A DNA stretch of 64,000 nucleotides. It comes from Escherichia phage REP4. The stretch is taken from the sequence record OQ174503.1. One strand, 5' to 3'. The notes beneath the pieces were generated by a model, which did no database searches, had not been told where the DNA came from, and saw only the letters and a program-made list of their open reading frames with translations. The position numbers were made by a program, and so were the translations under genes. Shown piece after piece: positions 23,159 through 55,928 of this stretch (within the stretch, counting starts at the first letter, position 1; each line of letters begins with the position of its first letter).

Positions 23159-23299
23159 TTTACCATACTAGTGAATGTAGTGCCATAATAACATCAGAAA
23201 TGAAAAGCACGACTTGAATTAATCCGAACATTACTCCATAATATAGTGCTACCAATAAAGCAGCAAGGGCTAACGAGTAGCCCAAGATTTTCTTAATCA
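23159..23299 (-). CDS. Hypothetical 46-aa membrane peptide (MIKKILGYSLALAALLVALYYGVMFG...)
   Basis: Manual translation; one predicted TM helix; ATG embedded in stop region of the next small ORF. Confidence 0.45.
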
Positions 23300-23444
23300 T
23301 TTTTATCCAATAATTTAAATAGTGATAAAACTGCTACCATGCCTTGGGCTAAAGATTGTGAAAACACCGAAGTTTCTCCGGTTACTAATGTTCCGACAAA
23401 TACAAATGACCAGCAGAAAAAAGCTATACTATAAACAAATTTCA
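23292..23444 (-). CDS. Hypothetical 50-aa membrane peptide (MKFVYSIAFFCWSFVFVGTLVTG...LLDKND)
   Basis: Manual translation; RBS GAGGAAATT; TM helix. Confidence 0.45.
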
Positions 23445-23473
23445 TAATTTCCTCATTATTAAATATAGGATTT

Positions 23474-23635
23474 CTTAATCATTTTTAATCATCTTAAGTA
23501 AACCGACAAAAGTAGAAAGAACCCAGCCAATAAACAGAAAACTTAAGAATATCGGACCAGGGGTCCATACGCCTAAAAAGAAGCAAACCGAACAGACTAT
23601 AGCCATAATAAGTTCAATAAAAATTAGGATAATCA
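23474..23635 (-). CDS. Hypothetical 53-aa membrane peptide (MIILIFIELIMAIVCSVCFFLGVWTPG...MIKND)
   Basis: Manual translation; RBS GAGGAAAAT; two hydrophobic segments. Confidence 0.45.
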
Positions 23636-23646
23636 TATTTTCCTCA

Positions 23647-24463: not shown

Positions 24464-24571
24464 TCAGGGAGTATAAAATCCAAATGCAGTTGTTGACCAT
24501 CCCATCCAATATGGGATATTTGCGCCAATGTAAAATACAAGAATATAAAACCAAATGCTTAGTAAATTCAT
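24464..24571 (-). CDS. Hypothetical 35-aa hydrophobic peptide (not in ORF track)
   Basis: Manual translation MNLLSIWFYILVFYIGANIPYWMGWSTTAFGFYTP; start overlaps upstream stop. Confidence 0.35.
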   Translation of the reverse strand: MNLLSIWFYILVFYIGANIPYWMGWSTTAFGFYTP

Positions 24572-24768
24572 TATTTTACACCATTCCAAATTGTTTCAAC
24601 CACAGATTTCAAACCATTTTGGTGAATATCCATTCCGACAACTGCCATCAAATAAATTCCAACTACAACTGAACCCAAGGCGAAAATCAGCATGAAAATG
24701 AATAAAGCTGGAAAAATATTATCGAAAAACCATTCCATAAATGTAAAAGCACTGCGTTTACGCTTCAT
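24571..24768 (-). CDS. Hypothetical 65-aa membrane protein
   Basis: ORF track 24571..24789 shortened to first ATG (MKRKRSAFTFMEW) with RBS GAGGAAAAT; one TM helix. Confidence 0.55.
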   Translation of the reverse strand: MKRKRSAFTFMEWFFDNIFPALFIFMLIFALGSVVVGIYLMAVVGMDIHQNGLKSVVETIWNGVK

Positions 24769-24775
24769 ATTTTCC

Positions 24776-24889
24776 TCACATAAATCCAAAGTAAGCGTTT
24801 AATACATCAATCATTAAAACGATTGGGAATATACTCAAAACTACTAGTATTATAACTACATTCCATATAGCTTTAACAATCTTTTTCAT
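24776..24889 (-). CDS. Hypothetical 37-aa membrane peptide (MKKIVKAIWNVVIILVVLSIFPIV...)
   Basis: ORF track 24776..25024 shortened; upstream part is translation of the early promoter repeat. Confidence 0.45.
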   Translation of the reverse strand: MKKIVKAIWNVVIILVVLSIFPIVLMIDVLNAYFGFM

Positions 24890-24917
24890 TTTCTGTTCCT
24901 CCGTAGTTGATAGAGTA

Positions 24918-24947
24918 ATAATACCACAGAGGAACAGTCTTGTAAAC
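24918..24947 (-). promoter_or_regulatory. Early promoter (GTTTAC, 18 nt, TATTAT)
   Basis: Minus-strand GTTTAC at 24942-24947. Confidence 0.6.
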
Positions 24948-25132
24948 AACTTTTTTAAAAATATTCGTAATAAATGTGAATACCAACTACTACTGCTGAA
25001 ACTTGCGCAACCCACCATGCACAAGCAATAAGTACAGAATTCAAAATTTTCATAATAACCTCATCACAAAAGTAAATGTTAAACAAATTAATGGAATACT
25101 AATTAACCAAACAAAACACCACCATAATGAAC

Positions 25133-25642: not shown

Positions 25643-25672
25643 ATAGTACCACAGTCCTTGTGGTATGTAAAC
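25643..25672 (-). promoter_or_regulatory. Early promoter (GTTTAC, 18 nt, TACTAT)
   Basis: Minus-strand GTTTAC at 25667-25672; conserved flank CCGTATCAGTTGATAGTTGTATAGTACC. Confidence 0.7.
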
Positions 25673-25688
25673 CGTTTTGTGAAAATTT

Positions 25689-31838: not shown

Positions 31839-32099
31839 TTATTTAAAACGGATAGTCGAATCCTTGAAGAAAAGACCAGAACATACTGTTCCTTCTACTT
31901 TCTGCCCGGTAGGTCCAATAGCACGAAATCCAGTATGTTGGAAATCATTTTCAGAGCAACCGAACCAATTATATCCAGTGATTTCAATATTAGTAAAACC
32001 ACTTGAAGACAGAACTTTGGTTGCATTATCAGCATCAGTACATCCTACTAAAGATACTGCTAATACTATTGCCGCGATAGAACGATTAACATATTTCAT
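31839..32099 (-). CDS. Putative lipoprotein, 86 aa (39.1 position)
   Basis: ORF track start is TTG; ATG at MKYVNRSIAAIVLAVSLVGC with lipobox L-V-G-C; mature part has two further Cys. Confidence 0.65.
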   Translation of the reverse strand: MKYVNRSIAAIVLAVSLVGCTDADNATKVLSSSGFTNIEITGYNWFGCSENDFQHTGFRAIGPTGQKVEGTVCSGLFFKDSTIRFK

Positions 32100-45321: not shown

Positions 45322-45948
45322 TTAACCTCTATTCATAAAAGCATTAAAAATTTGGTCATCAATAGAAACATTCACTTTAGACTGTTTTTCTGATGGTAAT
45401 TCATATCCACATATTACAATTTTATGATCAATATCAAAATACACAGAAGCAATATGATTAATGATGTTTTCAGTAAAGTCTAAATCAACATCAATATCTT
45501 TTTGACCACAGCCCAAAGGATAAATAATGCGAGTAATTCGATTATCTTTAACAAAGATTCCACCGATATACTCTGTGCTGCGTTCAAAGTCTACACGCCG
45601 ACGAAATGAAAAATATTCAGGCTCTTTATGAGCTCGGCTCATAGGACACAACGAGTAACTAGAATAAGAGATGTCAAATCCTACGCCTTCAATATGAGCC
45701 AAATTATCATGATTAAACCAATTATAATCGTACGCCAAGTCCATTAGATTATAATATGTGAAAGGCACCGGATTAACATCATTAGTCACAAGCATGTAAT
45801 TAGCAACTGCTATAATTTCATTATTTTTAACGAATACAAACCGTGATTGATGTGAATGACCTGGACCTGCGTTTTCACGATTAATGATATAACACTGGGC
45901 ACCTTTATATTTGTACGTGTCTTTGCACTTGTGCATTTGATAAAGCAT
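45322..45948 (-). CDS. Hypothetical 208-aa protein at the T4 61.2 position (the gene reported as anti-DarT factor AdfA in T4)
   Basis: ORF track; position between 61.1 and sp and length match T4 61.2; assignment is by synteny and size only. Confidence 0.6.
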   Translation of the reverse strand: MLYQMHKCKDTYKYKGAQCYIINRENAGPGHSHQSRFVFVKNNEIIAVANYMLVTNDVNPVPFTYYNLMDLAYDYNWFNHDNLAHIEGVGFDISYSSYSLCPMSRAHKEPEYFSFRRRVDFERSTEYIGGIFVKDNRITRIIYPLGCGQKDIDVDLDFTENIINHIASVYFDIDHKIVICGYELPSEKQSKVNVSIDDQIFNAFMNRG

Positions 45949-46241
45949 TATTCACCTACCACTTCAGCGATGATATTTTTATTATTGAAGTTTTTATCAC
46001 AATACAGAACGTAATTATACTGCATTACACCACCAGACTTAAGCTGTTTTTGTACTTCAGCTTTCATTTCAGGGCGATCACGCTCAACGATATTCATAAT
46101 ATCCGCTTCAATTTGAGTTTCAACTTCAGTCTGATCTGCAGTCATAGACCATTCACACAAATCTTTGTCATAACCCGCCATAGCAGGCTGAGCAGCGCAA
46201 GAAGATAAAGCAAAAATTGCAGCAAAGATAAATTTTTTCAT
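45948..46241 (-). CDS. sp: Spackle periplasmic protein (superinfection exclusion; inhibitor of gp5 lysozyme), 97 aa
   Basis: ORF track; 22-aa signal peptide MKKFIFAAIFALSSCAAQPAMA then 75-aa mature part with two Cys; size and position of T4 sp (61.3). Confidence 0.85.
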   Translation of the reverse strand: MKKFIFAAIFALSSCAAQPAMAGYDKDLCEWSMTADQTEVETQIEADIMNIVERDRPEMKAEVQKQLKSGGVMQYNYVLYCDKNFNNKNIIAEVVGE

Positions 46242-50429: not shown

Positions 50430-51272
50430 TTAATCGACTGCTATTGGATGAATAGCATTAAACTTATGAAACGCTTCTGATTTTTCTTTGCGCGAAACAC
50501 ACATGCGAAGAACCTTTAATGGCTCGTCTTCTTCACCTAATGATTTTCGTTTTTCAATATTAGAAGTTTTCCAACGAGCTTGCTCTGGAAACTCTTTATT
50601 GATTTGCTCAAGAGCTCTATTATGTTTTGAATTACTACGAATTGAACTACATCCGCCTGGAGCTTGTGCTTTTCCAGACACAACCAGATATTTGAACAAA
50701 GCCAAATGCGGATAACCCTGATTAATTAAATTGAGAAATGCATACATATCTTCGCATAAATCAATTTTTCCATACCCAATTTGTTCTGTAGTAAGTTTTC
50801 CGAGGTCATACCATGTATTCGTGAATCCATATGAATTTTCACGATAATTACCCCAAGATGAAGTAATTTTAAAAATAGGTAGACGAGCATGACCGTGATA
50901 ATACCCGCAATCCATGGCATCTTCAACGTATTGAATCAATTCATAGAACTGTTCACGAGTTAATTGATTAATTTTATCTACGCAGCGACGATCATCTTTC
51001 TTTCGCATTGAACTCATACGAATAGTAGTATCATCATCAATCATCCAAATTCGTTGACCTGCATACATATCAGTAATTGCTTTACGAGTTCCAGCAATTC
51101 CATTAACATCATCAGGAATAGTTATAATTTTAGCCCTAGACCCGTAAGCGTCATAATAAGCTTTTTCTTCATGTTCACGTACTACAATATGAGGTTCATA
51201 ATCAGTCGGAAACATATCAAGGGCAGAAACTGCCCCTACGCGTTGATAGCTTGGAATTACGAATTGAATCAT
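50430..51272 (-). CDS. ba-gt: GT-A fold glucosyltransferase, 280 aa, at the position where T4 encodes b-gt; probable beta-alpha-glucosyltransferase of T2/T6 type
   Basis: ORF track start is GTG; ATG at MIQFVIPSYQR overlapping gene 42 stop (ATGA); DxD-type motif WMIDDDTT; 280 aa versus 351 aa for T4 b-gt. Confidence 0.65.
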   Translation of the reverse strand: MIQFVIPSYQRVGAVSALDMFPTDYEPHIVVREHEEKAYYDAYGSRAKIITIPDDVNGIAGTRKAITDMYAGQRIWMIDDDTTIRMSSMRKKDDRRCVDKINQLTREQFYELIQYVEDAMDCGYYHGHARLPIFKITSSWGNYRENSYGFTNTWYDLGKLTTEQIGYGKIDLCEDMYAFLNLINQGYPHLALFKYLVVSGKAQAPGGCSSIRSNSKHNRALEQINKEFPEQARWKTSNIEKRKSLGEEDEPLKVLRMCVSRKEKSEAFHKFNAIHPIAVD

Positions 51273-52009
51273 TTCCACTCACCGTTATAATCTTTTTTCG
51301 CAATATGAGTTTCGCCAGTTTTCCACCAATGGTCAACCAAATAAAAATGACGGGAATACACATGAAGGCTACCGACATTCCATATAATGGAACCTGCTTT
51401 ATACTGACGAGTTGAATCACCTGCATTCAAATCAGATACTAATTTATCTAGTACATATTTTTGCCATGCATAATCATTACGGAATCCGAAGACCACGTCA
51501 TTTGAACGCATGTTAACCACTGCATTAATTTTCTTATCACGAATCAGGTACTGTACTGTATTAGTACACATGAAATCCGACATGCCATCTTTATTGTAGT
51601 CAAACTGCATGGATGGACGAGTATAAATCATGATACCGCGTCGAGAATCAGGATTTTGACCAAGTTCAGCTAAACACATATCATACTGGGCATAGTTATC
51701 TTCTGACCAGATGGCCCAACCATAATTCGAGTTAATTTCGCCTTTAGAAGATGCTACCTGCTGCCAAATCTTCGGCGTTTCACCTGGAATATCTTTAACA
51801 AACAAACTTTGAGACTTATACCATTCAAGTTCACGCTGAATGTATTCATCATTAAGAGCGCCAAAAATAAAAGGTTCATCTGCTACAAATGATGCACCAA
51901 TAATTTCAATAGTTTTAACACCGGTTTTATCAATTACGAAATCTTTTTCCTTTAATGCAAGACCCAAATCAAGACGGATTTCTTCAACTGTCATATAATC
52001 GTTAATCAT
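51269..52009 (-). CDS. 42: dCMP hydroxymethylase gp42, 246 aa
   Basis: ORF track; size identical to T4 gp42; thymidylate-synthase-like fold motifs. Confidence 0.93.
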   Translation of the reverse strand: MINDYMTVEEIRLDLGLALKEKDFVIDKTGVKTIEIIGASFVADEPFIFGALNDEYIQRELEWYKSQSLFVKDIPGETPKIWQQVASSKGEINSNYGWAIWSEDNYAQYDMCLAELGQNPDSRRGIMIYTRPSMQFDYNKDGMSDFMCTNTVQYLIRDKKINAVVNMRSNDVVFGFRNDYAWQKYVLDKLVSDLNAGDSTRQYKAGSIIWNVGSLHVYSRHFYLVDHWWKTGETHIAKKDYNGEWK

Positions 52010-52016
52010 TTAAACC

Positions 52017-52166
52017 TCAATTGATGCATTCATATTTAATTTGTAACAGTAATAAACTCCAACCTATAATAAGTGGCGGAATCATAAGAGGAACTGTTAC
52101 GCTATAGTATATACTTATTATAATCATCAAGATTAAAAGCAATACTGCTAAAATTTTGCTTTTCAT
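52017..52166 (-). CDS. Hypothetical 49-aa membrane peptide translationally coupled to imm (not in ORF track)
   Basis: Manual translation MKSKILAVLLLILMIIISIYYSVTVPLMIPPLIIGWSLLLLQIKYECIN; ATG overlaps imm stop (ATGA). Confidence 0.45.
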   Translation of the reverse strand: MKSKILAVLLLILMIIISIYYSVTVPLMIPPLIIGWSLLLLQIKYECIN

Positions 52167-52414
52167 TCCTTCTCTCTGATGATAATTACTTGATTTTGCT
52201 GTACAGATTTTTTAGTTTCACCCGCAATTGACCAAATAAATGTAATAAACCAACCAATGATTGACCAGTTAAACAGTAAAGATGTGAAAAAGATTCCTAC
52301 TGTCGATTTTGACCCACGCATCAAGGCGATGAACCATGGAAGCATGTATATAATAATAGCCAACACGCCTGAAACTAAAACCATAAAAATTGAACCTGCT
52401 ACTAAAGTTTCCAT
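52163..52414 (-). CDS. imm: Superinfection immunity membrane protein Imm, 83 aa
   Basis: ORF track; 83 aa with two TM helices, located between 42 and 43 as in T4. Confidence 0.8.
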   Translation of the reverse strand: METLVAGSIFMVLVSGVLAIIIYMLPWFIALMRGSKSTVGIFFTSLLFNWSIIGWFITFIWSIAGETKKSVQQNQVIIIREKE

Positions 52415-52421
52415 ATTTTCC

Positions 52422-52802
52422 TCACTTAGTCAAATTTTTTACGCATGAATTATAAGAATTCACTACATACTCCATCGGAGCATTTTTACCTGTACGCCAT
52501 TGGTAATTATTAGCCCAATTAGCCCAAAGCTCAGCGCAGTAGTTTTCAATTTTTTCTTCGCGTGTAATTACATCTGAATTACGATATGCTTGAGCAGATT
52601 CATCTGGGCGAATAGCTTCGTCAAAATTCGCCTGCATCTGTTCTACTGTCTGTTTTGGAGCTTCTTTATAACACTTGACGTTAGGATTATAAAATTTGCT
52701 TGAACAGTTTACAATTTTTCCTACATCAGACTGATTTACTACCGGTCCTTGAGCTACACATCCAGTAAGACCCAATACAATAACCAAAATAGCGATTTTC
52801 AT
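52422..52802 (-). CDS. Putative lipoprotein, 126 aa
   Basis: ORF track; signal peptide MKIAILVIVLGLTGC with lipobox L-T-G-C; four further Cys in mature part. Confidence 0.65.
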   Translation of the reverse strand: MKIAILVIVLGLTGCVAQGPVVNQSDVGKIVNCSSKFYNPNVKCYKEAPKQTVEQMQANFDEAIRPDESAQAYRNSDVITREEKIENYCAELWANWANNYQWRTGKNAPMEYVVNSYNSCVKNLTK

Positions 52803-52812
52803 AATAATTTCC

Positions 52813-53049
52813 TCAAATACAAGTAGTAATTACTCCAGTAGTGCTTACACAGGTATTACCTAATTGAACACCCAACGTTCCATTAGTATTCATATGAAGA
52901 TTATCATCAATTTTTGTTGATACTTTACCATTCATGTGAATAATAGTATTAGATTCAATCACATTCTGAGTGTCATTTTCAATATCAATAAATGGAACAG
53001 TTGCTAATGCAACTAAACACGCTGCTAAACAACCATAAACAATTTTCAT
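52813..53049 (-). CDS. Putative secreted 78-aa protein
   Basis: ORF track 52813..53160 shortened to ATG at MKIVYGCLAACLVALATVPF (signal peptide, A-L-A cleavage motif); upstream part is promoter read-through. Confidence 0.55.
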   Translation of the reverse strand: MKIVYGCLAACLVALATVPFIDIENDTQNVIESNTIIHMNGKVSTKIDDNLHMNTNGTLGVQLGNTCVSTTGVITTCI

Positions 53050-53083: not shown

Positions 53084-53113
53084 ATAGTACCATGGAAGAA
53101 CGGGAATGTAAAC
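53084..53113 (-). promoter_or_regulatory. Early promoter (GTTTAC, 18 nt, TACTAT)
   Basis: Minus-strand GTTTAC at 53108-53113; conserved flank as in other copies. Confidence 0.7.
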
Positions 53114-53196: not shown

Positions 53197-53219
53197 GAAA
53201 AAGGGACCCGGAGGTCCCT
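53197..53219 (-). terminator. Terminator AGGGACC-TCCG-GGTCCCT plus U-run after gene 43
   Basis: 7-bp perfect stem and T-run on the minus strand, 12 nt after gene 43 stop. Confidence 0.8.
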
Positions 53220-53231
53220 AGATTTATTCTA

Positions 53232-55928
53232 TCAGCCAAACAGGAAGTCTAACGAAGCTTTTTCTTCATAGTCCATACCCGCCGATTCACACATACCCGC
53301 AAGCGGTTTAACAAACGATTTTTGGAACAAAGTTGAGTAGTCAATCCAAGATAGTACGTCAGAACGAATTTCTTTTGGAAGTTCCGTACCCGATGGCCAA
53401 GCAATGCACTTGTCACCAAATGGATTTCCTTCACGTAATGGAAGAACCATTACCTTATTTCCATCCAAAATTGGAGCTACACCTAAACCACTAACAGCTC
53501 GACGATAAGTTAACACACCACGAATATGGAACGGGCATTTAAATCCTGGCCAACCTTTATCGTCATATTTCGCTATATCGTTCGCGGTTTTTACTTCAGC
53601 AATAACTTTATAGTCAAGTTGACGATATTCTTTCTCAAAGTTCTTGTAGTATTCTTGGACAGACTCTTCGCCTTCCTGAAGAATACGACGAATACTTTCT
53701 TCGAGAGCTTCTTGTACTGCTTTTGGTGTTGAACTCTGCTGAGTTTCCATACCCATGATTTTTAGATGTGGTTCAGCAAATCGCTTATCTTCCATATCAT
53801 AAACGTTCAGAGCATAACGTTTTTTCGCTTTCCAAAATCCACCAACACCCTTTGAACCAAGTGGAGGGCAAGAAATAGCTTCACGGTCCATATGCATCAG
53901 ATGCTCGCGATTATTCATATAATCACATAACTCACGATATGCAACATCAATCATAGGTTCCATCTTTTTCTTACCAAACTGATTCATGAATTCAACTAAA
54001 TCATTTTGTTCTTTAAAGCGGTCAAGACCTACTTTTTCAATTACTTTATCTACACAAACATATACCGAATCAGTATCACCTGCTGCGATGAAATCTTCAC
54101 CATTAGTTCCACACACTTTATTTAGATACTCATTAATTTTACGAGCAATCCACTGAATACCAACTTGACCGAAAATTGTGATAGCAGTAGCATTTCGCAA
54201 ATCATAGTAACGGAAATGAATATTACCAAGAGCACCATAAAGACTGTTAATAAGAATTTTACGGTTCAGCTGATTTGTGTTAGCAAGTGTAGCTGCTTTT
54301 TCACATTCTTCGATCAGACTATTGAGAACAGATTCGGTGTAATTTGATAGTTCATTTAAGAAATCATCACTGAACTTAACATATCGTTCAACTTCTGGTT
54401 TAGTTGAGCAAGACCCTGCACCTTTCATAATAATCTTTTTAATAGCTTCGGCATTCATTTCTTCAGCGAACATTTTCTTTTTCCAATCTTTACGCTGGAA
54501 AAATACTTTAGCGATTTCCTTTGGAATGATACCTTCTTGGTGCTTATCATACATCCATCCATTCGGAGAGCAAGAATATTCATCACTTGGCTTAGGAGCT
54601 GTTCCTGCGATATATTCATGAATTGGATGAACTTTAAACTGCCCACGAATAGTCTCAGGACTAATGTTAACCTGACGAATAATGCTAGGATACAGAGACG
54701 TCAAGTCAAAACTCATAATGTATCGACGAGCAATCGGTTTAGGTTCAAACACAAATGCACCTGGAAAACTCTGTTTAACGTGCGAACCTTGTTGAGGAAT
54801 AACCTTATGTTCACCTTTCAGTGAGTTAAAAATAATAGCATCCCAAGTTTTAATAGGACTCATTACACCAGAAAAAGGCATTTTAGCATAATAAGACATA
54901 CTTAAAACTAGATCGATAAACCCACGAATTTTATCAATTGCTTGAACTGATTCTACGTCAATGATGTTATAACTAATGTATCGTTGATGATTAGTCTCAC
55001 GAAGTTTATTAATAGGACCATCGTACGGCAATTTACCTTTTTTGGTTTCGTGCTGAGCAACTGATTCCAAAGAGAATGATGGCAAATTAGTAAATGCGAA
55101 TTTTTTGTACAAATCTAAATAATCAAGAATAGATACGCCATCAATCGAATAAATTTCTTTGCTACCGTACATATTTTGAATTAGTTTAGATTTTACTCGA
55201 CCGATTGGAGAGAAGCGTTTCATACTACGTTCACCGAGAACCATTTTAACACGGTTCATGATATACGGAACGTCAAATCCCTCAATATTCCAACCGGTAA
55301 AAATAGCAGGTCGTTTCTGTTCCCAGAGATTAATATATTCCATGAGCATATCACGCTCATTATCAAATGGCATATAAATTACTCGGTCAAGAATTTCTTG
55401 AGGAACTTCATCACCACCTTCACAGTCAAGTTTAGCAGCTAACTTTGCATCCCATTTTGATACTGAACCGTACATTGAATTCAACAAATCAAAGACGTAA
55501 AAACGGTCGTCAATTGAATCATAATGAGTGATAGCATCAATTTCATATTCTGCTTTCATTGGGTCAGGAAATTTATCACCAGTAACCTCAATGTCACAGT
55601 TAGCTACACGAACAAATTTTCGGTCATAAACAATTTCTGAACCATATGTATCACTGATATAAGCGAGTTTAAAATCGTTCATACCGAGAGCTTCGAGACC
55701 GATGTCTTCCATTCGTTTCATCCAATCTCGTGCATCTTTCATTGATGGAAATTTTTGAGGAGCACAGTTTTTACCATAAATGTCTTTGTATTTTGACTCT
55801 TCCTTACAGTGCCTAAACATAGTCGGAAGATATTCTACTTCACGGGTACGTTCCTTTCCGTTTTCATCAATGTAACGCTCAACAATGTTATTTCCGACTG
55901 TTTCGATAGAGATATAAAATTCTTTCAT
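53232..55928 (-). CDS. 43: DNA polymerase gp43 (family B), 898 aa
   Basis: ORF track; size identical to T4 gp43; exonuclease and polymerase motifs (DIEVTG, YGDTDS, KILINSLYG). Confidence 0.97.
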   Translation of the reverse strand: MKEFYISIETVGNNIVERYIDENGKERTREVEYLPTMFRHCKEESKYKDIYGKNCAPQKFPSMKDARDWMKRMEDIGLEALGMNDFKLAYISDTYGSEIVYDRKFVRVANCDIEVTGDKFPDPMKAEYEIDAITHYDSIDDRFYVFDLLNSMYGSVSKWDAKLAAKLDCEGGDEVPQEILDRVIYMPFDNERDMLMEYINLWEQKRPAIFTGWNIEGFDVPYIMNRVKMVLGERSMKRFSPIGRVKSKLIQNMYGSKEIYSIDGVSILDYLDLYKKFAFTNLPSFSLESVAQHETKKGKLPYDGPINKLRETNHQRYISYNIIDVESVQAIDKIRGFIDLVLSMSYYAKMPFSGVMSPIKTWDAIIFNSLKGEHKVIPQQGSHVKQSFPGAFVFEPKPIARRYIMSFDLTSLYPSIIRQVNISPETIRGQFKVHPIHEYIAGTAPKPSDEYSCSPNGWMYDKHQEGIIPKEIAKVFFQRKDWKKKMFAEEMNAEAIKKIIMKGAGSCSTKPEVERYVKFSDDFLNELSNYTESVLNSLIEECEKAATLANTNQLNRKILINSLYGALGNIHFRYYDLRNATAITIFGQVGIQWIARKINEYLNKVCGTNGEDFIAAGDTDSVYVCVDKVIEKVGLDRFKEQNDLVEFMNQFGKKKMEPMIDVAYRELCDYMNNREHLMHMDREAISCPPLGSKGVGGFWKAKKRYALNVYDMEDKRFAEPHLKIMGMETQQSSTPKAVQEALEESIRRILQEGEESVQEYYKNFEKEYRQLDYKVIAEVKTANDIAKYDDKGWPGFKCPFHIRGVLTYRRAVSGLGVAPILDGNKVMVLPLREGNPFGDKCIAWPSGTELPKEIRSDVLSWIDYSTLFQKSFVKPLAGMCESAGMDYEEKASLDFLFG

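Follow-up and report, generated by a model that had tools for sequence, protein, structure and literature searches.

The imm locus of Escherichia phage REP4: an exchangeable cassette gene upstream of conserved envelope genes, and a lipoprotein family usually found beside imm

Knowledge of Imm, an inner-membrane protein that stops the entry of superinfecting-phage DNA, goes back about 50 years. Llp and Cor are lipoproteins that bind the phage's outer-membrane receptor and block further adsorption, and T4 superinfection exclusion acts other than at adsorption. Spackle (T4 gp61.3) is a small, helical, disulfide-containing and soluble periplasmic protein that functions in superinfection exclusion (PMC7677548). 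In PST and T4 phages, elements called PeSL have the consensus of a stem-loop followed by TTTACW-N17-TAYWAT, a Shine-Dalgarno (SD) sequence and an ATG (Comeau et al., PMC4122927), and they have also been found beside "plastic nonessential adaptive genes" (PMC4122927). Here we describe the imm locus of Escherichia phage REP4 (sequence record OQ174503.1), in which positions 52,017 to 53,049 of a 64,000-nucleotide (nt) stretch (hereafter, the window) contain four small genes, orf78, imm.1, imm and 42.1. The locus is a known one, as Tequatrovirus genomes nearly identical to it already carry annotations for all four; the PP01 and SA21RB records, for instance, annotate imm, imm.1 and the 78-amino-acid (aa) (or a 115-aa) open reading frame (ORF). 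The new point is that the lipoprotein family of imm.1 usually lies beside imm across T4-like phages. In addition, the four genes do not make up one unit; the cluster comprises one swappable cassette gene together with conserved envelope genes.

On sequence matches, the locus is the early transcription unit of a T-even (T2/T6-like) coliphage whose nearest relatives are the Shigella phages SH-1 and Shfl2. A 1.4-kb segment around the imm cluster was 99% identical to SH-1 and 98.6% identical to Shfl2 and SA21RB, and it matched 520 phage records, almost all of them Tequatrovirus. The T4 imm/imm.1 locus (T4p045, T4p046) has the same gene order, terminator and early promoter as the window, with identities of about 96% for Imm, 98% for Imm.1 and 88% for the 49-aa ORF; it differs in being without the window's 237-bp orf78 between the promoter and imm.1. 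Transcription of these genes, all of them on the minus strand, follows the order 43, orf78, imm.1, imm, 42.1, 42 and a glucosyltransferase gene. orf78 (52813–53049) encodes 78 aa from the ATG at 53049, imm.1 (52422–52802) a predicted outer-membrane lipoprotein of 126 aa, imm (52163–52414) the 83-aa inner-membrane superinfection immunity protein, and 42.1 (52017–52166) a 49-aa membrane micro-protein with two hydrophobic segments. Each product falls in a PHROG family (4189, whose function is unassigned, 1754, 1039 and 3610, respectively). The gaps from orf78 to gene 42 are, in order, 10, 7, −4 (an ATGA overlap) and 7 nt, and the genes form one compact early operon. Thus, the original prediction of four consecutive genes for exported or membrane proteins between 42 and 43 was borne out by ORFs with hydrophobic N-termini or membrane segments, and the overlap of the imm stop with the start of the 49-aa ORF, which it had described as coupling by ATGA, was seen in the sequence.

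Imm.1 matched the Pfam family DUF5481 (PF17578) over the entire profile (positions 1–103 of 103; 239.2 bits against a cut-off of 27). The PROSITE lipobox rule PS51257 calls for K/R within the first seven residues, an uncharged core, [LIVMFWSTAG]2-LIVMFYSTAGCQ-[AGS]-C, and the Cys at 15–35. Imm.1 conforms to this rule with K2, a hydrophobic core, ILVIVLGLTGC, Cys15 and Val at +2, in agreement with the LTGC lipoprotein originally proposed. The PS51257 lipobox Cys was retained in six of the seven DUF5481 members, and a lipobox was seen in all six of the long-form relatives described below. Two C-terminal cysteines and a VVxASEVGKxR motif just past the lipid anchor are likewise family-wide features. 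According to the E. coli +2 rule, a lipoprotein without Asp at +2 is sorted to the outer membrane. As Asp is found at this position in none of the family members, their predicted destination is the inner leaflet of the outer membrane, and Imm.1 would accordingly be a lipid-modified, outer-membrane protein. Among the DUF5481 cysteines, Cys89 and Cys120 are invariant, whereas Cys33 and Cys44 are either both present or both absent, a pattern expected of disulfides in an exported protein; the conserved pair in the helical, periplasm-facing domain therefore probably forms a disulfide. One homologue (P0019, from metagenome contig SRR30535852_365571) has lost the lipobox Cys (LAGF) and carries an AHA|S site instead, so that the protein of this lineage may be soluble in the periplasm.

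Imm.1 was 96–100% identical over about 500 Tequatrovirus records including T2 and T4, and the T2, T4 and window proteins were 97–98% identical to one another, with T6 in the same DNA match set. A Pfam scan at E ≤ 1 returned no other lipoprotein family beyond the generic lipid-attachment-site motif, sequence searches against solved structures gave no match, and the NCBIfam and PADLOC family libraries yielded nothing meaningful. The RefSeq record NC_000866 names T4 imm.1 (T4p046; L003:2637-3014) "iduronate sulfatase", a label copied into other records; as the Pfam scan returned no sulfatase family, the name appears to be a mistake in the annotation.

The neighbourhood of imm.1 was then compared across T4-like phages. 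A HMMER scan of 1.84 billion representative proteins with Imm.1 recovered six clusters only, two of which were Tequatrovirus fragments, and a word-indexed protein search found near-identical Imm.1 sequences only; an IMG/VR scan with Imm gave only five close loci. In all four divergent DUF5481 clusters (Mosigvirus and three metagenomic contigs), a PF14373 gene, that is, an imm homologue, lay immediately downstream. The order in Mosigvirus a20 is dmd, Imm.1, Imm and Sp, and on this gene order the imm.1–imm pair has been relocated together to a site beside spackle. In other genera, longer lipoproteins occupy corresponding places. Gelderlandvirus Melville has the order 43, 148-aa lipoprotein, Imm, 42; Jiaodavirus JD18 and KPV15 have 43, 147-aa lipoprotein, Imm, 42; and in Dhakavirus JS98 and Gaprivervirus VR26 the order is 43, Imm, 42.1 and a 166–167-aa lipoprotein. 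Together, a lipoprotein of the same family adjoins imm or sits one gene away from it in six Tevenvirinae genera.

To compare the short and long forms, the signal peptides were removed and the mature parts were aligned by Smith-Waterman against 500–1000 shuffles. With the DUF5481 member P0022 as the partner, the z scores were 8.9 for VR26, 5.9 for JD18 and 5.8 for JS98; the Melville–JS98 pair scored 11.3 and the pair of VR26 and window Imm.1 4.3. In all five pairs, no shuffle reached the observed score. P0022 itself matched window Imm.1 with a HMMER E value of 1.2e-4 against the whole library, and tblastn on the phage collection tied the Melville lipoprotein to Dhakavirus (E = 1e-4) and to Enterobacter phages (E = 1e-13). 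These alignments make a good, though not closed, case that DUF5481 and the 147–175-aa forms belong to one Tevenvirinae-wide lipoprotein family.

The selection acting on the locus was estimated as the ratio of nonsynonymous to synonymous substitution rates (dN/dS; Nei-Gojobori, 6–9 Tequatrovirus genomes). The ratio was 0.03 for imm.1, lying between those of the gene 43 C-terminus (0.01) and gene 42 (0.05), followed by 0.09 for imm, 0.31 for 42.1 and 0.38 for orf78. Thus, imm.1 is under strong purifying selection and is constrained like the replication enzymes. Published screens, on the other hand, show that the four genes are dispensable on laboratory hosts. In T4 transposon sequencing, all TA sites were hit in both imm.1 (31 of 31) and imm (20 of 20), and the Bas37 genes bas37_0156–0159, which occupy the interval from the dCMP hydroxymethylase gene to the DNA polymerase gene, all tolerated insertions (bioRxiv 10.1101/2025.11.20.689424, supplement). 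In the CRISPRi-ART screen, imm.1 was scored "Not Fit" and imm "Fit" (PMC11879866, supplement), and the authors ascribe the latter score to population-level superinfection effects (PMC11879866). The "Fit" score of imm differs from its non-essentiality by transposon sequencing; as 42.1 is coupled to imm and lies 7 nt upstream of the essential gene 42, the imm knock-down phenotype might reflect effects on the downstream genes rather than the loss of Imm. As to the periplasmic anti-defence functions that the original prediction had also suggested, the evidence points neither way, the T4 and Bas37 screens having shown no need for these genes in the hosts used. Tight sequence constraint combined with the lack of a phenotype in single-phage growth would be expected of a trait that counts when phages compete with one another.

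Based on these features, we propose that Imm.1 could be an outer-membrane or periplasm-side component of superinfection immunity that works alongside Imm. The reasons are that its gene lies beside imm in most genera, moves with it, shares its early promoter, and is constrained yet dispensable. Since Imm.1 is invariant among T2, T4 and relatives with different receptors, it would act on something equally invariant, such as the incoming tail tip or a conserved envelope component, and not on a phage-specific receptor. The lipoprotein had been put forward as an exclusion candidate in the original prediction; the adjacency to imm in six genera and the joint relocation support this link through guilt by association. 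We regard a role for Imm.1 in superinfection exclusion as tentative, being possible rather than probable, and a module of the Imm.1-family lipoprotein, Imm and 42.1 that spans the envelope and confers superinfection immunity on T-even phages as doubtful. If such a module existed, the lipoprotein would be the missing periplasmic or outer-membrane partner of Imm, and such a partner could account for the ability of a small inner-membrane protein to arrest DNA ejection once the tail has crossed the outer membrane. For T4 geneticists, Imm.1, long labelled "hypothetical" beside imm in T-even genomes, is thus a candidate Imm partner. We have high confidence in the structural and evolutionary description of the locus; for the overall explanation, which blends this description with the function of Imm.1, our confidence is only slightly better than even.

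Several observations weigh against a partnership of Imm.1 and Imm. Imm alone, expressed from a plasmid, reportedly excludes T4 (Lu and Henning, 1989). Kanagawavirus Q7622 and Mosugukvirus PM2 have a 175-aa lipoprotein after gene 43 and no imm in the 43–42 interval, and among Enterobacter phages the lipoprotein was present in at least 27 records, compared with fewer than 9 that match Imm. Conversely, Imm-domain genes occur in many non-T4-like phage genomes of about 40–70 kb, and the organism summaries of the lipoprotein searches show none of these. As regards the family itself, a profile-profile comparison of mature DUF5481 with the long-form lipoproteins was not significant, so that their union rests on transitive pairwise scores, and a hidden Markov model search linking the two was likewise negative. 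Since Tevenvirinae gene order is conservative in general, much of the synteny is not independent, and independent weight comes only from the Mosigvirus relocation and the permuted order in Dhakavirus and Gaprivervirus. In addition, the PS51257 rule can mislead, as it also matches the soluble Spackle. Finally, a literature search turned up no functional study of imm.1 or DUF5481, and likewise no functional data for 42.1 or orf78.

The first gene of the operon, orf78, behaves differently from imm.1. When the window was aligned with T4, exactly orf78 (237 bp) was absent from T4 as a clean indel whose junctions lie at Shine-Dalgarno/ATGAAAAT sequences. In T2, RB27, RB51 and about 30 other records, the same slot holds an unrelated 83-aa ORF that has no hydrophobic segment; this T2-type ORF (phage T2, PV958097, L014:1237-1488) has a 54%-identical homologue in Dhakavirus. 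orf78 itself is present in 325 records. Between PP01 and the window, the DNA of imm.1, imm and 42.1 was 100% identical, but that of orf78 only 83.5%, indicating that distinct orf78 alleles have been exchanged inside otherwise identical flanks. The Dhakavirus homologue of orf78, moreover, lies near nudE, e and denV, away from imm. The suggestion that orf78 is a superinfection-exclusion candidate because of its location is therefore not supported: it is a mobile cassette gene, so its position is uninformative about its function, and a false lead is thereby removed.

The N-terminus of Orf78 has Lys2, a 14-residue hydrophobic core and ALA|T at 14–16, as read with a hand-written −3/−1 rule and not with a trained predictor. 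This type I-like pattern fits the cleavable signal peptide that had been described for it, and an uncleaved signal anchor is also compatible. The protein has no lipobox according to PS51257, the Cys11 of LAAC being too near the N-terminus, and its Dhakavirus homologues are without an N-terminal Cys. Three homologues (P0006, P0010 and P0014) have tandem duplications of seven residues (CLVALAA) within the signal peptide, and one of these, the 85-aa variant P0006, alone among the Orf78 forms conforms to PS51257 (LAAC18). Some orf78 alleles may thus encode lipoproteins, while the window allele does not. The 48 C-terminal residues, with two C-terminal cysteines, were predicted to form a small beta domain, for which structure comparison gave no informative neighbour. 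A 115-aa reading of orf78 starting from 53160 was rejected, as the extension covers the promoter and leader and is unconserved. Orf78 would thus be a fast-evolving, exported small beta-protein whose gene has been inserted into a promoter-proximal slot, outside the conserved module.

This slot lies behind a composite regulatory element. Gene 43, encoding the DNA polymerase, forms the upstream flank (53232–55928, minus strand, from the ORF list and sequence matches), and 3′ of it is an intrinsic terminator hairpin (AGGGACC-TCCG-GGTCCCT followed by a T run; 53202–53219, minus strand). This hairpin is kept in T4 and in metagenomic relatives and was among three detected in a terminator scan of the window, compared with 0.6 expected. 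It is followed by an early promoter of the T4 type, TTTACA-N17-TACTAT (53084–53112, minus strand), with TG and an A/T-rich tract upstream. The original prediction had assigned to orf78 an early promoter of its own; an early promoter is indeed present, but it serves the whole operon and is not specific to orf78, because in T4 this promoter immediately precedes imm.1. The promoter and leader recur on the minus strand of the window at 25685–25606, 21640–21583 and 4471–4412, and the copy at 25651–25606 is identical over 46 of 46 nt, encompassing the −10 box, leader, SD sequence and ATG. With its stem-loop, TTTACW-N17-TAYWAT, SD sequence and ATG, genomic repeats and adjoining indel, the element after gene 43 matches the PeSL definition. 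The PeSL elements of T4-like phages have the same layout, are repeated in the genome and lie close to indels and gene replacements; the window copy differs in its location between the core genes 43 and 42 and not in a large hyperplastic region. PeSL-like repeats could mediate the exchange of cassettes. In the model that we favour, this PeSL-type terminator-promoter would drive a polycistron of the orf78 cassette, imm.1, imm and 42.1, with transcription continuing into gene 42 and the glucosyltransferase gene, and all four small products would be targeted to the cell envelope.

The two distal small genes were examined in the same manner. Imm matched PF14373 well above the cut-off (58.1 bits against 27.9; E = 7.8e-16) and the PHROG 1039 profile "immunity to superinfection" (E = 7e-32), confirming its proposed identity. 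The Imm proteins in Tequatrovirus records, those of T4 and T6 among them, were 96–100% identical to it, and from its identity of about 96% to T4 Imm, the window protein is expected to block DNA entry of a superinfecting phage. The 49-aa ORF is annotated as "42.1" in T4T and RB32 and is omitted from the T4 reference record. It matched PHROG 3610 over positions 1–47 of 47 (E = 1.9e-24). Homologues of 47–49 aa were found in Mosigvirus, Gaprivervirus, Kanagawavirus, Mosugukvirus and two metagenomic relatives, sharing the motif SIYW..T.P.MIPT..GW...LQAKYECFN, which is also borne by a shorter annotated ORF of 36 aa in Dhakavirus JS98; 42.1 is absent from Gelderlandvirus, Jiaodavirus and one metagenomic relative. 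In every full-length homologue (thus leaving out JS98), the start of 42.1 overlaps the stop of the preceding gene, which is either imm or, in three genera, an arabinose-5-phosphate isomerase gene. On these comparisons, 42.1 is a real, conserved gene for a membrane micro-protein and is not tied to imm; it is widely conserved even though it is missing from the T4 reference annotation. Its product may be a hairpin-like inner-membrane micro-protein whose translation would be coupled to whichever gene precedes it.

A MotA-type middle promoter of gene 42, TGCTT-N14-TATAAT (52117–52141, minus strand), lies within the 42.1 coding sequence; it was read from the sequence and is annotated at the equivalent SA21RB position. 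Because of this location, a full 42.1 message can come only from the early transcript. That 42.1 is merely a chance ORF over this promoter was ruled out by the conservation of the protein across genera. Downstream, 7 nt past 42.1, is gene 42, encoding dCMP hydroxymethylase (51269–52009, minus strand; ORF list and Pfam), which is followed by a glucosyltransferase gene (50430–51278, minus strand). The glucosyltransferase is a beta-glucosyl-HMC-alpha-glucosyltransferase of the T2/T6 type (Pfam TAGT) and not the T4 beta-gt, so the phage probably has T2/T6-style DNA glucosylation.

We also considered how unusual the four-gene run is. By a crude hydrophobicity measure, 14 of the 103 window ORFs were classed as membrane or export proteins, and at this frequency about 0.03 runs of four would be expected per window; the run is thus modestly non-random. 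Very small, strongly hydrophobic ORFs on the minus strand also occur in runs at 23160–23636 (46, 50 and 53 aa) and 24571–25018 (65 and 80 aa), which shows that clustering of membrane micro-ORFs is not peculiar to the imm locus. Elsewhere in the window, another small predicted lipoprotein of 86 aa (MKYVNRSIAAIVLAVSLVGC; 31839–32099, minus strand) conforms to PS51257 with Cys20.

These runs bear on a different explanation, namely that the four genes are unrelated early accessory genes that share a tolerated insertion site between 43 and 42 and a strong early promoter, and that their common envelope targeting reflects how commonly T4 accessory genes encode small membrane proteins. orf78 behaves in just this way, as a cassette in a PeSL slot that is empty in T4 and holds a different gene in T2, and with a homologue elsewhere in Dhakavirus. 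The persistence of 42.1 without imm, the lipoproteins of Kanagawavirus and Mosugukvirus that have no detectable imm, and the fact that none of the four genes is required in laboratory screens point in the same direction. The joint move of Imm.1 and imm to a place next to sp in Mosigvirus, however, would not be expected of unrelated neighbours, nor would the fact that, although gene order varies, at most one gene separates them in six genera, and a dN/dS of 0.03 shows that Imm.1 is no drifting passenger. We therefore consider it doubtful that this explanation accounts for the whole cluster.

Another alternative is that the Imm.1-family lipoprotein protects or remodels the envelope independently of Imm, for example by conferring resistance to lysis from without, controlling the tail or endolysin muramidase, or stabilising the outer membrane. 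Its presence in genera in which Imm was not detected would fit such a role, as would the conserved VVxASEVGKxR, whose position after the lipid anchor suggests binding near the outer membrane, and the closeness of the Mosigvirus lipoprotein to spackle, which encodes a tail lysozyme inhibitor. The similarity to Spackle, however, is limited to the signal peptide, solved structures gave no match, and single-phage screens showed no phenotype, although such screens are blind to competition traits. An envelope function separate from Imm thus appears unlikely, and superinfection immunity alongside Imm remains the role that we propose for Imm.1.

Among the known systems, Llp of T5 and Cor of phi80 and N15 resemble Imm.1 in design only, being small, early outer-membrane lipoproteins that protect the infected or lysogenic cell, and Pfam detected no sequence relationship between them and Imm.1. 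T2, T4 and T6 use different outer-membrane receptors. That Imm.1, with its Llp/Cor-like design of a small early lipoprotein predicted at the outer membrane, masks the phage's own receptor to block adsorption, as the original prediction had allowed, is highly improbable, because a receptor-specific blocker should vary with the adhesin whereas Imm.1 is constant across these receptor types, because the Pfam scan found no other lipoprotein family, and because exclusion in T4 is not at the adsorption step.

Homology between Imm.1 and Spackle was rejected, as the alignment is confined to the signal peptides. The signal peptide of the window's Spackle (MKKFIFAAIFALSSC...; 45948–46241, minus strand) also fits the lipoprotein pattern with Cys15, although the protein is described as a soluble periplasmic protein of 75 aa; either this is a false positive of the rule or the processing of Spackle merits re-examination. 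The two proteins differ in that Spackle is soluble while Imm.1 is predicted to be lipid-anchored. Nevertheless, both are early, small and exported, and in Mosigvirus spackle directly follows Imm.1 and Imm.

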